Shown here one piece after another: positions 30,221 through 64,000 of a DNA stretch of 64,000 nucleotides. The position numbers and the translations under genes were made by a program. A model generated the notes under the pieces. The model searched no databases, was not told the origin of the DNA, and was given only the letters and a program-made list of their open reading frames with translations. Source of the DNA: a virus; IMG/VR virus record IMGVR_UViG_3300048065_001187, positions 1 through 64,000 of that record, one strand, 5' to 3'. The number at the start of each line of letters is the position of its first letter. The first letter of the stretch is position 1.

Positions 30221-30248
30221 ATTATAACATAAAAATAAAAAATGTCAA
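30221..30248 (-). promoter_or_regulatory. Consensus sigma70 promoter of the leftward operon
   Basis: On the minus strand: TTGACA (30248-30243), 16 bp, then TATAAT (30226-30221) with an extended TGn. Confidence 0.8.
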
Positions 30249-30997
30249 GTAAAAATTTTAATAATATATCTTTTTGTATCGCCACCAACGGAAAAAAGGT
30301 TGAGAAGACGAAAGTTTTAATATCTTCTATACTAGGTATTAAAAAATATGGAAACTTTAATATTGATATAAATATATGTGGATGCACGGATAGTTTTATA
30401 GGTATTCCTGGGCTCAATTTGATAGATGCTTGCCAGGAAGCTAAGAGCGGTATGTTATCAGCACTTAGGTTTATTGCGGCAGAGGATATTAATACTGATA
30501 TCTTTGTGTTTGTGGATGATGACTTTGTTTTCCCGGAAGATTGGTTGCTTAATTTAATAAATTTCAGCGAAGATAATTATTGGGATGTGCTTGGTCATAA
30601 AATATTATTACCAAATGGTGACAGATTCTGGGATAAGGCTACTTTTAGTCCCCATAGAATGATTAATTATGATGATCCTATAAGTGAAAATTATTATCAA
30701 ACAGGTGGGTTTTGGATAATTAAATCATCTGTTTACAATCAATGCAAATGGGATGCCTCAATACCTATTAATGCTACAGATAAAGGGTTTAAATACAACG
30801 AAGATGTTGACATGAGTATTCGTATTAGGGATAATGGTTTTATTTTTAATTTTGACAAAAACAATTTAGTATGGCATAATGATGATTCTTATCATCAAGA
30901 AGGTAGTAGAGTTTTTAAAACACCAAACCACATGAAGTTAATAAAAGGAACTTTAAATACCTTTAAAAAATTAGTTGATACTAATAAAAATATTTAA
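30242..30997 (+). CDS. Glycosyltransferase family 2 (GT-A)
   Basis: ISFCIATNG, IFVFVDDD and NEDVDMSIR motifs. Confidence 0.82.
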   Translation: MSSKNFNNISFCIATNGKKVEKTKVLISSILGIKKYGNFNIDINICGCTDSFIGIPGLNLIDACQEAKSGMLSALRFIAAEDINTDIFVFVDDDFVFPEDWLLNLINFSEDNYWDVLGHKILLPNGDRFWDKATFSPHRMINYDDPISENYYQTGGFWIIKSSVYNQCKWDASIPINATDKGFKYNEDVDMSIRIRDNGFIFNFDKNNLVWHNDDSYHQEGSRVFKTPNHMKLIKGTLNTFKKLVDTNKNI

Positions 30998-31002
30998 TAA
31001 TC

Positions 31003-31725
31003 ATGAATAGTAATAATAACAAAACTATAGTAGTTATGGCAAACGGGCCTTCACTAAGGGATGTTGATTTTAATTCCTTTAAACATTTAGATACATTTGG
31101 CCTTAATGCGGCTTACAGGATGTATAGTAAAATGAATTGGTGGCCAACATATCATGGCTGCTTTGATTATGTGATTTGCGAGAATCATAGAAAACAGTAC
31201 CAATCCTTAATTGACGACGCATCAAATAATATCAAAAAATTTTTCTACATAAAAGATTTTAATAAATCACCAAGATTTCAAAGAATTAAATTAAGCGGAG
31301 ACTTTAATCCTCATAACCCATTATGTAGATCAATTAGTGACTTCGACTATTTTCACGATAAAGGGAATTCAGGTGCCAATGCTTGTCAAGTAGCAATCTG
31401 CCTTGGTTACAAGAAAATTATACTACTTGGAGCAGATTGTAATTATAAAGAAATTGTTGATGGTGCGGAAATATACAAAGATAATGAAGCAAACAGATTA
31501 ATTATTTCAGAAACCATAAATAAAAATCCTAACTATTGGTTTGATGACTACCAGCAACCTGGCGACAGATACAACATACCAAATGTAAATGTATTTCAAA
31601 AACCTGGCTGGGAAAGTTTGGCTTCAAAATGCAAGAATACAGATATAGATATAGTTAACTGCAGTGCAGTCAGCAAATTAGATTGTTTTAGAAAATCAGA
31701 ATTACATTTAGAGCTTGATGTATAA
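31003..31725 (+). CDS. Sialyl/ulosonyl-transferase-like protein (CST/MAF/DUF115-type)
   Basis: VVMANGPSL, TFGLN, NSGANACQVAICLGYKKIILLGAD and IVNCS are the GT42/MAF-like motif set. Confidence 0.7.
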   Translation: MNSNNNKTIVVMANGPSLRDVDFNSFKHLDTFGLNAAYRMYSKMNWWPTYHGCFDYVICENHRKQYQSLIDDASNNIKKFFYIKDFNKSPRFQRIKLSGDFNPHNPLCRSISDFDYFHDKGNSGANACQVAICLGYKKIILLGADCNYKEIVDGAEIYKDNEANRLIISETINKNPNYWFDDYQQPGDRYNIPNVNVFQKPGWESLASKCKNTDIDIVNCSAVSKLDCFRKSELHLELDV

Positions 31726-31739
31726 ATTTATTTCATGCA

Positions 31740-32411
31740 ATGAAGTTATTATTTTTCACAGACTCTAGAGGAGAACACAAACTTTCCTTTGCTAATAGAA
31801 AAATTTTTCCAGAAAAATTCCTGGATGATTCTGAATGCGATCTTTTTCTTTGCCCCTTTAAATGGACTACTACCCTTGACTTCATACGTCTCATTGAAGA
31901 AAAGAAAATTGACATCAATAAATATGATAAAATAATTCTATACACGGGAGTTGTGGAATTTTCTCCTAGAAACATTTCAAACTTTAAAGAATGCATGCAG
32001 GACAAATTTGTTTTCCTCAAGCACTTTCTAGGTAAATATTTAGATCTGAATCACACATATGGAGTACATTACAAAGGGGAAGATACGAAAAGTTTGATAA
32101 CAACAGAAGCATATCAAGATATTGTAATTCCATATCTTCAAAATTTTGATGAAAAATTAATATTAATTAATACAAATAATATTGTTCCTCAATGGGATGG
32201 AAATTACCTTAAAGTAAACCCGCTAGGCAGGCCTAAAAATATAAACGTAGTTAGCAATTATTCAAAAAAAACAGTTGGTAAATTCAGTAAATTAGTTAAT
32301 TTATTAGAATGGGATTTTAATGAAGTTAAAAAATACACTGTAGATAATATGCATTTGACTTATGCAGGCTCTGAATTCATCTATAAAAAAGTAAGAGAAT
32401 ACATAAATTGA
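31740..32411 (+). CDS. SGNH/GDSL-like hydrolase or O-acyl enzyme
   Basis: N-terminal FFTDSRG (GDS-like), ILYTGVVE and a C-terminal DNMHL (DxxH). Confidence 0.55.
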   Translation: MKLLFFTDSRGEHKLSFANRKIFPEKFLDDSECDLFLCPFKWTTTLDFIRLIEEKKIDINKYDKIILYTGVVEFSPRNISNFKECMQDKFVFLKHFLGKYLDLNHTYGVHYKGEDTKSLITTEAYQDIVIPYLQNFDEKLILINTNNIVPQWDGNYLKVNPLGRPKNINVVSNYSKKTVGKFSKLVNLLEWDFNEVKKYTVDNMHLTYAGSEFIYKKVREYIN

Positions 32412-62472: not shown

Positions 62473-63154
62473 TTTAATTATATTGACCACGGCGATTTGC
62501 CGACCAGAATTGCAAACCGAATGCCTGAAAAGTTTTGCGGATGATTTACGCGATCAGGGTATTAGTGTCTTTTGGCGTATTAATATTGACCCAGCTCTTG
62601 GCGATCAAGATGAAACAGCTGACAACTTTAAAAAAATTATTCATGATATTGATCACATTATCTCATTTCCACCTGAACCTTGTTTTTTTACTGCTGCGAA
62701 TTATTTAATACAAGAAACACACCAAGAAGAACTTCAAGATTTAAATGACAACGGTTATATTATGTGGCTTGAAGATGATAAAAAACACGACATCAGTTTT
62801 AATATACAAGAATTGATTGATAGTGATTATGATTATATTGGCTTCCATCCAAATCATCTTTTTGAATTTTCATTTCATCCGTCAATGTGGGGTAAGCAGT
62901 TTTTCTCTGAGCATGTCTACGGACCATATATTCTAAATGATGGAAAGAAACAAGACCCCGAACAGCTTTTGATTGACTATCATCGCAATAGAAAAAAAGA
63001 AGACAGGGATCATTTTAAAAATGTTAAACGTGTTCATTTTAATGGAATATTTAATCATATCGGCAGAGAATGGAACGAGCAAAACAATGTAAAAAAATGG
63101 AATAAATCAAAACAAGATTCATCTATTAGTTATGAGAATATCCCACAAGCATAA
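62465..63154 (+). CDS. GT-A fold glycosyltransferase-like protein
   Basis: LTTAICRPEL, INID, IMWLEDD, SFHPS.W and HIGREW motifs. Confidence 0.6.
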   Translation: MYDLIILTTAICRPELQTECLKSFADDLRDQGISVFWRINIDPALGDQDETADNFKKIIHDIDHIISFPPEPCFFTAANYLIQETHQEELQDLNDNGYIMWLEDDKKHDISFNIQELIDSDYDYIGFHPNHLFEFSFHPSMWGKQFFSEHVYGPYILNDGKKQDPEQLLIDYHRNRKKEDRDHFKNVKRVHFNGIFNHIGREWNEQNNVKKWNKSKQDSSISYENIPQA

Positions 63155-63695
63155 ATTTGTTTTTATAGCCGTCCCTAAAACTGGCAGCACTTCAGTTAGG
63201 TCGATTATTGACCCATACAGTGATATAGTAAGTGTTAATGATAGAAATTCACCGTACAAACATCATACTACAGCACTAGACTTGAAAAAACATTTTGAAT
63301 CTGAAGGCTGGAATTGGGACGATTATTATAAATTTTCAGTAGTAAGAAATCCTTGGGAAAGACGAGTATCGTCATGGGCTTATAGACTCAAAAAAGGTCA
63401 GCATAACCATACCGAATTCAAAGATTTTGTTATGCATTACCCAGCAAACCCTCAAGTCAACTGGCTTTTTGATGAATCGGGTAATTCACTTATGGATTAC
63501 ATTTTTAAACTTGAAGATCTTGACGGCATGGATAAAGTTTTTGATGATTTAAATATTCCTAAAGTAAATTTACCGCACAAAAACAAAAACAATCACAAGC
63601 ATTATACTGAATATTACGACAACGAAGCCCGTGAAATGGTTGCAGAAAAATATGCTAAGGATATCGAGTATTTCGGATACGAATTCAAAGAATAA
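63132..63695 (+). CDS. Carbohydrate sulfotransferase (Sulfotransfer_2 family)
   Basis: ISHKHKFVFIAVPKTGSTS, FSVVRNPWERRVS, HYTEYY and YAKDIEYFGY motifs. Confidence 0.92.
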   Translation: MRISHKHKFVFIAVPKTGSTSVRSIIDPYSDIVSVNDRNSPYKHHTTALDLKKHFESEGWNWDDYYKFSVVRNPWERRVSSWAYRLKKGQHNHTEFKDFVMHYPANPQVNWLFDESGNSLMDYIFKLEDLDGMDKVFDDLNIPKVNLPHKNKNNHKHYTEYYDNEAREMVAEKYAKDIEYFGYEFKE

Positions 63696-63696
63696 A

Positions 63697-63701
63697 GTGT
63701 A
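63697..63701 (+). promoter_or_regulatory. GTGTA upstream element (candidate phage promoter)
   Basis: Begins 14 nt before ATG 63711. Confidence 0.55.
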
Positions 63702-63710
63702 CATCAAGAT

Positions 63711-64000
63711 ATGAACATACTAATTACTGGAGTTGCGGGGCTCATCGGGAGCAGGTTAGCCGATTGGCTTCTTGAAAACATTTCAAATGCAACAATCATA
63801 GGAATTGATGACTTAAGTGGTGGTTACATAGAAAACCTTGATGAAAGAATTATTTTTTATCAAGCTAATTTACATGAAGATGATATCAATCAAATTTTTG
63901 AAAATCATAGTATAGATTATGTTTTTCATTTAGCGGCTTATGCAGCAGAAGGGTTAAGTCCTTTCATAAGAAAGTTTAATTATATGAACAATACAGTCTC
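63711..64000 (+). CDS. NAD-dependent epimerase/dehydratase (3'-truncated by the window edge)
   Basis: Translated by hand as MNILITGVAGLIGSRLA...GIDDLSGG...VFHLAAYAAEGLSPFIR. The frame is open to the window end. Confidence 0.9.
   Translation, partial: MNILITGVAGLIGSRLADWLLENISNATIIGIDDLSGGYIENLDERIIFYQANLHEDDINQIFENHSIDYVFHLAAYAAEGLSPFIRKFNYMNNTV

Follow-up and report, generated by a model that had tools for sequence, protein, structure and literature searches.

The first 64,000 nucleotides (the window) of the IMG/VR virus record IMGVR_UViG_3300048065_001187, a single viral contig of 150,766 bp with 34% GC, carry part of an extensive island of glycan genes. In our interpretation, the island resides in the phage and serves the cytoplasmic production of an acidic glycan that is sulfated and contains fucose, with the phage's own virion proteins as the most likely acceptor; to this reading we assign a probability of about 40%. 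Glycosylation of virions is plausible and ranks first among the explanations considered. Family profiles predict soluble enzymes for the synthesis of activated sugars, glycosyl transfer, sulfation, pyruvylation and methylation, and gene comparisons indicate that uncultured marine tailed phages of a large clade, whose genomes measure about 200 kb, possess the island as an ancestral trait. A RecA-like anchor gene led to 73 related viral loci, and searches covered 22 related records, including seven called near-complete. As a complete reference we used G001, a collinear relative of 213,830 bp from a different, independently assembled IMG/VR record; most proteins are 80–97% identical between the contig and G001.

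An earlier note on the window, the original prediction, had described a glycan block of about 34 kb at positions 30242–64000. These coordinates and most of the genes hold, but the run does not consist of glycan genes throughout, because a block encoding ribonucleotide reductase (RNR), NUDIX and DnaJ-like proteins (38454–43601) and a GHKL ATPase (59793–61538) interrupt it, and the real island is larger, extending from genome position 23139 to 74542 (23.1–74.5 kb) between lambda-like tail genes and replication genes. It comprises about 50 genes, including eight sulfotransferases, one sulfatase and two methyltransferases; approximately 41 kb are glycan-related, corresponding to 27% of the contig and, for a genome of ~212 kb, to roughly one fifth. 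The 42 plus-strand open reading frames (ORFs) in 30242–64000 are tightly packed, with 34 of 41 junctions overlapping or at most 5 nt apart, in agreement with the translational coupling that had been proposed. On the left, three GT-B genes on the minus strand extend the island to 23139, adjoining tail gene J. The right extension, up to 74542, contains two sulfotransferases, two Methyltransf_24 genes, a GT2+GT7C enzyme, GT61, GT25-like and GT47-like transferases, a DUF1796 papain-like protein (genome 70931–71560), a second Fcl-like reductase and a 461-aa sulfatase. At minimum 13 glycosyltransferases (GTs), all lacking a membrane anchor, are firmly supported, and the number is probably 15–20. Hydropathy analysis predicted no membrane helix in any GT or sulfotransferase of the island, as the original prediction had stated for the transferases. 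A PHROG scan of ten island ORFs lacking a Pfam match yielded nothing, and PDB sequence searches with the GT77, the GT61, a 643-aa GT and ORF 45393 returned no match.

The predicted routes for activated sugars lead to GDP-fucose, a 6-deoxyhexose, UDP-galactofuranose (UDP-Galf), a uronate-type sugar and a CMP-ulosonate. Pfam and NCBIfam recover the genes previously assigned to them, namely gmd, fcl, an rfbB-type dehydratase, an RmlD-like reductase, a short NDP-sugar dehydrogenase, glf and two epimerases, and the CMP-ulosonate module likewise resolves into a PseF-like cytidylyltransferase, an HpcH-type aldolase and a CstI/CstII-like GT42 enzyme (Table 1). The gmd gene is present in 6/6 near-complete relatives at 76–96% identity. 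The dehydrogenase at 37480–38334 lacks the C-terminal UDP-binding domain and has a shortened N-terminal domain; this truncated form is conserved, as the G001 orthologue (87% identity) is also 284 aa long.

Among the glycosyltransferases, the 643-aa GT4-type enzyme occurs in 6/6 near-complete relatives, including the two without sulfation, and has 3658 homologues at E ≤1e-5 among 8000 candidates scored, the best 120 listed being 59–99% identical. Its structural model (predicted local distance difference test, pLDDT, of 86) matched the chlorovirus NY-2A glycosyltransferase 3oy2 best in the PDB (1.4e-16), with only 15% sequence identity and with MshA/BshA-type GT4 enzymes following closely. Four invariant cysteines (C275, C278, C293 and C296), possibly a zinc ribbon, are inserted in the GT-B fold, and the C-terminal part combines DUF4214, which is helical, with a small domain of alpha/beta type (residues 537–616) for which no structural match was reported. 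The GT9-related enzyme at 23139–24320 has 140 homologues, many with PF01075; the best PDB matches of its model (pLDDT 90) are WaaC/WaaF, with TibC lower, over one domain and ~200 columns only. Within the window, the expected GT2, GT25, GT77, NodZ-like and two GT90 transferases were recovered, the GT90 genes at 54022 and 61528 being paralogous (1e-56). The proposed GT34-like enzyme was not confirmed; the 309-aa ORF at 44467 is just GT2-like, with virus-only GT2 clusters as its nearest neighbors in the Atlas. Similarly, the pyruvyl transferase at 51382 was found as expected, but the methyltransferase-like genes placed in the window were not, both Methyltransf_24 genes lying beyond its end. In the near-complete relative G012, stop codons break the clade-core GT4 gene (25082–26972), and the same genome has one weak sulfotransferase match and no APS kinase; the glycan system may be decaying there.

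Of the eight sulfotransferases, seven belong to PF03567 (34–71 bits against a cut-off of 22) and one is NodH-like. The six counted earlier in the window were all recovered, five by PF03567 and the sixth by a family profile built from 40 of 92 relatives found among 1.84 billion representative proteins; R12, G14, R127 and S136 are invariant in this NodH-like family. The 5'-phosphosulfate-binding loops, of PKxGxT/S type, are intact (HIPKSGGT, HIPKAAGTS, AVPKTGSTS, HVVKTGGIS, HIPKCAGTS, SPKAGCT, ATKTGGSA and ERAGTTS), and the eight enzymes are old, diverged paralogues. The sulfotransferase at 57290 has ~65 orthologous clusters at 71–88% identity on contigs of up to 222 kb; past these, a search of 5.8 billion proteins gave nothing above 48% identity and no cellular homologue above that value. 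Only 48 of 50,697 phage records contained even one distant homologue of the island sulfotransferases.

The check for synthesis of the sulfate donor 3'-phosphoadenosine 5'-phosphosulfate (PAPS) that the original prediction had suggested was positive in part. An APS-kinase domain lies at genome 109793–110599, and searches for a canonical ATP sulfurylase and for CysD found neither; adenosine 5'-phosphosulfate (APS) may be supplied by the host. The kinase is present in exactly the five of seven near-complete records with at least two sulfotransferase matches and missing in the two with no or one weak match. The sulfatase has an intact CQPSR motif (residues 66–70; C-x-P-x-R type), lacks a signal peptide and is unique to the source record among the 22 relatives. 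Neither a formylglycine-generating enzyme nor a credible radical-SAM maturase (anaerobic sulfatase-maturating enzyme) was found in five records, and therefore the activity of the sulfatase would depend on a host maturase. Its best bacterial matches, at 40–46% identity, are sulfatases of marine polysaccharide degraders. An attempt to infer the host from these matches failed, as they are spread over Verrucomicrobiota, Kiritimatiellota, Bacteroidota, Planctomycetota and Latescibacterota.

These enzymes would also be compatible with a free, unanchored sulfated polysaccharide made in the cytoplasm, acting either as a matrix or decoy released by lysis or as an intracellular heparin-like polyanion directed against host nucleic-acid enzymes. 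The best solved relatives of the GT2+GT7C enzyme are K4 chondroitin synthase (4e-12) and heparosan synthase, in line with a glycosaminoglycan-type polymerase; the sulfation capacity is heavy, genes for export or anchoring are missing, and the signal-peptide-less sulfatase with its intact CQPSR could edit such a polymer in the cytoplasm. However, glycosaminoglycan polymerases normally need a lipid or a protein as primer, the sulfatase occurs in one record only, and the GT2+GT7C gene, with 67% identity to G001, belongs to the less conserved section of the island, so that we consider a free polymer unlikely. A further use of the transferases would be glycosylation of modified bases in the phage DNA and thus evasion of restriction. 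Phage GTs can hypermodify 5-hydroxymethylcytosine with diverse glycans (bioRxiv 10.1101/2023.12.21.572611), but four near-complete records contain no hydroxymethylase of the thymidylate-synthase family, and sulfation, pyruvylation, ulosonate and Galf routes together with 15–20 GTs go far beyond any known DNA glycan; a TET/JBP search was uninformative, as the controls gave no match either. DNA hypermodification is very improbable.

Comparison among relatives delineates a conserved and a variable part of the island. Sulfotransferase matches number 0–11 over the relatives, with 1–11 in 16 of the 21 larger related records, and orthologues of the sulfotransferase at 57290 and of the 643-aa GT lie on many contigs of 190–222 kb. 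The core proteins of the source phage and G001 are 80–95% identical. The region 30.2–48.6 kb is 82–97% identical to G001, and the regions 48.6–57.3 kb and 68.0–71.6 kb have no counterpart in it. The adjacent NodH-like and NodZ-like genes (46913–48597), which overlap by 4 nt, lie in the most conserved part of the island (90–94% in G001). G001 carries a second glycan island of ~11.6 kb (176.8–188.3 kb), inserted between the orthologues of genome 119509 and 119796 and including a 620-aa open frame with three separate sulfotransferase matches. Because this second island holds, at 187.5 kb, the 89%-identical orthologue of the main-island RmlD-like gene (52496), cassettes move between loci. Long residence in phages is suggested by the sulfotransferase without cellular homologue above 48% and by the GT2-like ORF in virus-only clusters. 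Taken as gene comparisons, these data indicate that the island is ancestral and resident in the lineage, with a conserved fucose-centred core and swappable outer cassettes, an arrangement that fits a surface-exposed, recognised structure.

The same comparison bears on whether the contig is chimeric or a mis-binned bacterial capsule or O-antigen locus, a check called for by the original prediction. The contig is linear and incomplete. Relative to G001 it opens mid-way in a gene for 4460 aa and stops ~61 kb early. These ~61 kb of G001 include the large terminase gene (TerL), together with the head module. The contig represents only ~70% of the genome, and its CheckV completeness estimate of 100% is wrong. 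Terminase_6N (TerL) was matched in four collinear relatives and not in the truncated contig. Although these defects could point to an artefact, the island has phage genes to its left (tail genes L, K, I and J) and to its right (RecA-like, DnaB, primase and DnaE), GC is even over the window (0.30–0.40), sulfotransferases recur in the related viral records, and the order of tail, island and replication genes recurs in the independently assembled G001, which argues against a chimera; we see practically no chance of an artefact. The source is a tailed phage (Caudoviricetes), as had been predicted, with lambda-type tail genes (gpL, gpK and gpI-J) and TerL in the collinear relatives.

Dedicated export and priming genes, which the original prediction had failed to find in the window, are missing from the wider set as well. 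Bac_transf (PF02397) and Glycos_transf_4 (PF00953) were matched in 0/22 related records, with positive controls in 10/14 and 12/14 genomes, respectively; Wzx (PF01943) and Wzy (PF04932) also gave 0/22, the controls across profiles being positive in 10–13 of 14 genomes, and the ABC-2 permease (PF01061) 0/4 near-complete records. A six-frame hydropathy scan detected no ORF with at least six helices in the contig or G001 and one multi-pass membrane ORF only, in both alike. A bacterial Wzx/Wzy- or ABC-dependent locus would have an initiating enzyme, a flippase, polymerase or permease, and a chromosomal location; the island has none of these. The gene for this lone multi-pass protein, which has 387 aa, ~5 helices and a loop of 220 aa, is part of the replication module (genome 81313–82476); its family is confined to phages and has no known function.

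The negative export searches are nonetheless compatible with remodelling of the host envelope, because LOS-type assembly on lipid A-core, where LOS denotes lipooligosaccharide, requires no dedicated priming or export gene. The phage enzymes would then act on the cytoplasmic side of the inner membrane and rebuild the outer core of lipopolysaccharide (LPS) or LOS, or the capsule, while the host would contribute the priming enzyme and, for export, MsbA/Lpt, Wzx or ABC systems. This would probably benefit the phage by blocking superinfection by competitors or by keeping progeny off debris. We regard this as possible, although less probable than virion glycosylation. The GT9-related, GT25, CstII-like GT42 and NodH-like enzymes belong to families best known from LPS/LOS work, and co-direction with the replication genes would suit action before lysis. 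Similar hypervariable regions of GT and sugar genes beside the tail-fibre genes of pelagimyophages and cyanomyophages have been read in this way (PMC7029224), and hypervariable regions of marine bacteria carry the same families, including gmd and sulfotransferases (bioRxiv 10.64898/2026.04.03.716430). On the other hand, the core is conserved while host-recognition proteins diverge, and close cellular homologues of the genes tested are missing, which would be odd if the enzymes had to match the acceptor and exporter of every host. Specificity for one's own repeat unit is a property of Wzy and of most Wzx proteins; 15–20 GTs and eight sulfotransferases are far beyond core modification, and ~20–27% of a lytic genome would be a high price for an effect lasting one latent period.

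Several observations weigh against the virion proteins as acceptor. Apart from two weak fibre segments, no mucin-like Ser/Thr tracts were found in the virion proteins, and no GTs in the head module of G001. The folds of the core GTs do not discriminate between acceptors, because their matches mix small-molecule, lipid and protein enzymes. The missing anchors are not evidence for a virion acceptor either, since anchors are normally also missing from the non-initiating GTs that O-antigen and capsule loci of bacteria encode. GT9, GT25 and GT42 are classic families of the LPS/LOS core, and the sixth sulfotransferase has as its best structural match a NodH whose deposition names it an LPS sulfotransferase. 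The island runs in the same direction as the genes for nucleotide metabolism and replication and is not in a late operon. The comparable islands of pelagimyophages were read as host O-chain modification (PMC7029224). Finally, with the contig covering ~70% of the genome, claims of absence rest on the relatives. No computed result fixes the acceptor as a virion protein; of the virion-protein glycan originally proposed, the soluble cytoplasmic enzyme set without export genes is upheld and the acceptor is not.

We nevertheless rank virion glycosylation first because the island has resided in phages for long and the genes tested have no close cellular homologues, and because the core is conserved though the host-recognition proteins have diverged (55–66% identity between contig and G001, compared with 80–93% for other structural proteins) and the investment is large. 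In addition, lysis removes the need for export, and the fibril clusters of Megavirinae provide a close parallel (PMC9614988). In the mechanism we propose, the glycan would be assembled stepwise in the cytoplasm by soluble enzymes. The conserved core, i.e. gmd/fcl, the 643-aa GT4, the GT9-related GT and the block of sulfotransferase, NodH-like and NodZ-like genes, would build the inner structure, and swappable cassettes would contribute strain-specific sugars, sulfate, pyruvate and methyl groups. The most likely acceptors, proteins of the phage particle such as those of fibres, tail or head decoration, would be loaded while particles are assembled in the cytoplasm; the particles would be freed by lysis, so that no export would be needed. 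By analogy, this would mirror capsid and fibril glycosylation by giant viruses.

Virus glycan factories and phage GT islands are each already known. In Megavirinae (Mimivirus, Moumouvirus, Tupanvirus and Cotonvirus), glycogene clusters glycosylate the virion fibrils (PMC9614988, PMC10117803, PMC8456856), and the giant-virus parallel drawn in the original prediction holds, as these clusters have a similar gene mix (PMC9614988). Common features are sugar-nucleotide synthesis, soluble GTs, methyltransferases, the lack of export machinery, content differing between close relatives, sulfate metabolism (SAT/APS kinase in Megavirinae) and papain-like proteins (in the Cotonvirus cluster, PMC9614988; here DUF1796). 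Megavirinae infect eukaryotes, have clusters of 6–33 genes and fibril glycans that have been shown chemically, whereas the phage island has ~50 genes with eight sulfotransferases, from which the glycan is predicted. Chloroviruses (PBCV-1, NY-2A) share cytoplasmic virus-encoded GTs and gmd/fucose-rhamnose pathways and glycosylate their capsids; their system as described in PMC9614988 has no sulfation, and the phage GT differs by its four-Cys insert and DUF4214 tail.

Among phages, pelagimyophages and cyanomyophages likewise carry tens of kb of GT and sugar genes beside host-recognition genes, variable among relatives, the pelagimyophage region averaging 44.6 kb (PMC7029224). These regions are not reported to contain a sulfotransferase array, APS kinase, sulfatase or pyruvyl transferase (PMC7029224), and pelagimyophages are T4-like myoviruses, in contrast to the lambda-type tail tip, DnaE polymerase and ~200-kb genome found here. 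Mycobacteriophages decorate their own capsid and tail-tube proteins by means of phage-encoded GTs that act in the cytoplasm (Freeman et al. 2023, PMC10527164, as cited in PMC12619734); these GTs number two to four beside structural genes, use host sugar nucleotides and are described without sulfation, unlike the full island found here and the GT-free head module of G001. Literature searches brought up no phage in which eight sulfotransferases form an array together with APS kinase, sulfatase and ~15–20 GTs.

Two bacterial systems show only distant similarity to the island. Adjacent and overlapping, the NodH-like and NodZ-like genes resemble the NodH/NodZ pair of rhizobia, which decorates the reducing-end GlcNAc of Nod factors. 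The GT2+GT7C enzyme provides the corresponding link to bacterial glycosaminoglycan systems. Chitooligosaccharide, LPS or capsule serve as substrates in the bacterial systems, which also have exporters; the phage island lacks these.

Sulfated polysaccharides are a major, poorly degradable pool of marine carbon and sulfur, whose makers are usually taken to be algae and a few bacteria. Phages of a large, uncultured marine clade are now predicted to commit about a fifth of their genome to such a glycan, and the core GT has thousands of metagenome homologues. Tentatively, and at odds somewhat below even, we suggest that the virions of this abundant, globally distributed clade are coated with a strain-specific, sulfated, fucose-containing polysaccharide made wholly by the phage, including part of the PAPS supply. 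If so, giant-virus glycan coats would have their first counterpart in phages, a sulfated glycan of viral make would for the first time be shown on a particle, and autonomous virion glycosylation would extend from giant viruses to phages. Dense, variable, negatively charged coats would have consequences for adsorption, aggregation, grazing and decay and for how readily particles stick to marine gels, and the variable cassettes would represent a serotype-like diversity of the virus itself. If the glycan instead sits on the infected cell, the island would surpass in elaboration all earlier cases in which a lytic phage re-dresses its host. On either reading, it offers enzymology a wealth of soluble, compact sulfotransferases and of eukaryote-type GTs. 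The speculation that the glycan mimics algal fucans and attracts hosts was supported by no result.

Table 1. Predicted genes of the tail-tip block and the glycan island; positions are those of the window, or of the genome where indicated
Feature	Position	Strand	Evidence
gpL-like tail gene	tail-tip block, 15.4–22.4 kb		phrog_18 8e-60
gpK-like tail gene	tail-tip block, 15.4–22.4 kb		phrog_30
gpI-J fusion, 1732 aa	tail-tip block, 15.4–22.4 kb		phrog_31 1e-101
GT9-type nucleotide-sugar-domain glycosyltransferase, clade-core	23139..24320	-	Pfam Glyco_transf_9 1e-5
DUF6165 protein	24304..24726	-	Pfam PF19662 6e-8; 89% identical in G001
GT4-type GT-B, 643 aa, clade-core	24707..26638	-	phrog_2170 1.5e-18; Glycos_transf_1/DUF4214
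Second phrog_2170 glycosyltransferase	28025..29110	-	PHROG 3.4e-20; 79% identical in G001
GT2 glycosyltransferase	30242..30997	+	Pfam Glycos_transf_2 1.9e-5, above cut-off
GT42-like (CstI/CstII-like) ulosonate transferase	31003..31725	+	Pfam MptE-like, CST-I; PDB sequence CstII 4e-5
ORF in ulosonate module	31740..32411	+	no Pfam/PHROG match; no G001 counterpart
CMP-ulosonate cytidylyltransferase (PseF-like)	32408..33037	+	Pfam CTP_transf_3 1.3e-16; NCBIfam PseF 7.5e-17
ORF in ulosonate module	33039..33629	+	no real Pfam match; no G001 counterpart
HpcH/HpaI class II pyruvate aldolase, candidate ulosonate synthase	33632..34378	+	Pfam 5.5e-13
GDP-mannose 4,6-dehydratase (gmd), clade-core	34375..35406	+	Pfam 2.9e-102; NCBIfam gmd 1e-94
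GDP-L-fucose synthase (fcl)	35403..36347	+	NCBIfam GDPFucSynFcl 3.2e-127
Short-chain dehydrogenase/reductase (SDR) NDP-sugar epimerase/dehydratase (GalE/LegB-like)	36596..37507	+	Pfam Epimerase 1.7e-60; NCBIfam
Nucleotide-sugar dehydrogenase, short, 284 aa	37480..38334	+	UDPG_MGDP_dh N-terminal and central domains only; NCBIfam 3.4e-52
Non-glycan interruption: RNR large subunit, NUDIX, two small ORFs, RNR small subunit, DnaJ-like	38454..43601	+	Pfam
Three conserved ORFs, 213/309/283 aa	43829..46244	+	no Pfam match; 83–97.5% identical in G001
Sulfotransferase PF03567	46237..46923	+	Pfam 1.1e-14; PKSGGT loop
NodH/Stf0-like sulfotransferase	46913..47713	+	no Pfam match; family profile to NodH 9vki 3.8e-15, also TPST, Stf0
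NodZ-like (GT23) fucosyltransferase	47710..48597	+	Pfam NodZ 2.3e-14
dTDP-glucose 4,6-dehydratase, opens variable cassette	48598..49530	+	NCBIfam 1.2e-123, above equivalog cut-off; no G001 orthologue
ORF without match	49527..50222	+	no Pfam/PHROG match
Sulfotransferase PF03567	50219..50947	+	Pfam 4.5e-13
Small nucleotidyltransferase (CTP_transf_like; TagD/RfaE-domain type)	50949..51389	+	Pfam 1.1e-13
Polysaccharide pyruvyl transferase	51382..52494	+	Pfam 6.7e-21
RmlD-like 4-reductase	52496..53350	+	Pfam RmlD_sub_bind 8e-25
ORF without match	53343..54053	+	no Pfam/PHROG match
GT90 glycosyltransferase	54022..54939	+	Pfam 3.4e-21
UDP-galactopyranose mutase (glf)	54929..55921	+	Pfam GLF 3e-49; NCBIfam 8.3e-74
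Sulfotransferase PF03567	55918..56544	+	Pfam 3.9e-8
ORF without match	56541..57293	+	no Pfam/PHROG match
Sulfotransferase PF03567	57290..57928	+	Pfam 3e-19
GT25 glycosyltransferase	57912..58583	+	Pfam 6.3e-7, above cut-off
GT77-type nucleotide-diphospho-sugar transferase	58580..59326	+	Pfam Nucleotid_trans 2e-16
ORF without match	59314..59787	+	no Pfam match
GHKL-type ATPase, 581 aa, own GTGTA element upstream	59793..61538	+	HATPase_c_3 9e-8; 69% identical in G001
GT90 glycosyltransferase	61528..62472	+	Pfam 7e-25; PDB sequence matches POGLUT2/1
ORF without match	62465..63154	+	no Pfam/PHROG match
Sulfotransferase PF03567	63132..63695	+	Pfam 3.4e-13
SDR epimerase, continuing to genome 64700	63711..64000	+	Pfam Epimerase 2.1e-41
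Two Methyltransf_24 genes	genome 64691 and 72150, beyond window end		
Sulfatase, 461 aa	genome 68801–70186		Pfam Sulfatase 4.2e-50 and SGSH_C

To the right of the island, fibre-like structural genes form a block, and a Lon-like protease is encoded there in addition to the RecA-like, DnaB, primase and DnaE-type polymerase proteins. A search of five records with the HK97 capsid Pfam model gave no match. The phage has no cultured close relative, its DnaE polymerase being at most 32% identical to any, and megablast of 50 kb of the window against the 50,697 phage records gave no match. Moraphages (PMC12619734) were considered as the same lineage and rejected, as they are T4-like myoviruses. The ORF that is open at the contig start (window 1–6758; 2238 residues) corresponds to the C-terminal half of the 4460-aa gene of G001 (59987–73369) with 81% identity; the protein is Ala/Lys/Glu-rich and tape-measure-like, which would imply an extraordinarily long tail. 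Within window positions 1–331, bases 1–100 are repeated exactly at 232–331, indicating either a 231-nt direct repeat within the giant gene or an assembly-end artefact.

Over the whole contig, a Shine-Dalgarno-like motif precedes 20 of 177 ORFs, compared with ~12 expected by chance, and the upstream regions are A-rich; such a near-chance level is typical of Bacteroidota-like translation. A GTGTA(A/T) element is located 14–16 nt ahead of the starts of the island genes at 36596, 38454, 41330, 59793 and 63711, and likewise ahead of the replication genes at 77105 and 81042 and the structural genes at 89171 and 98572.

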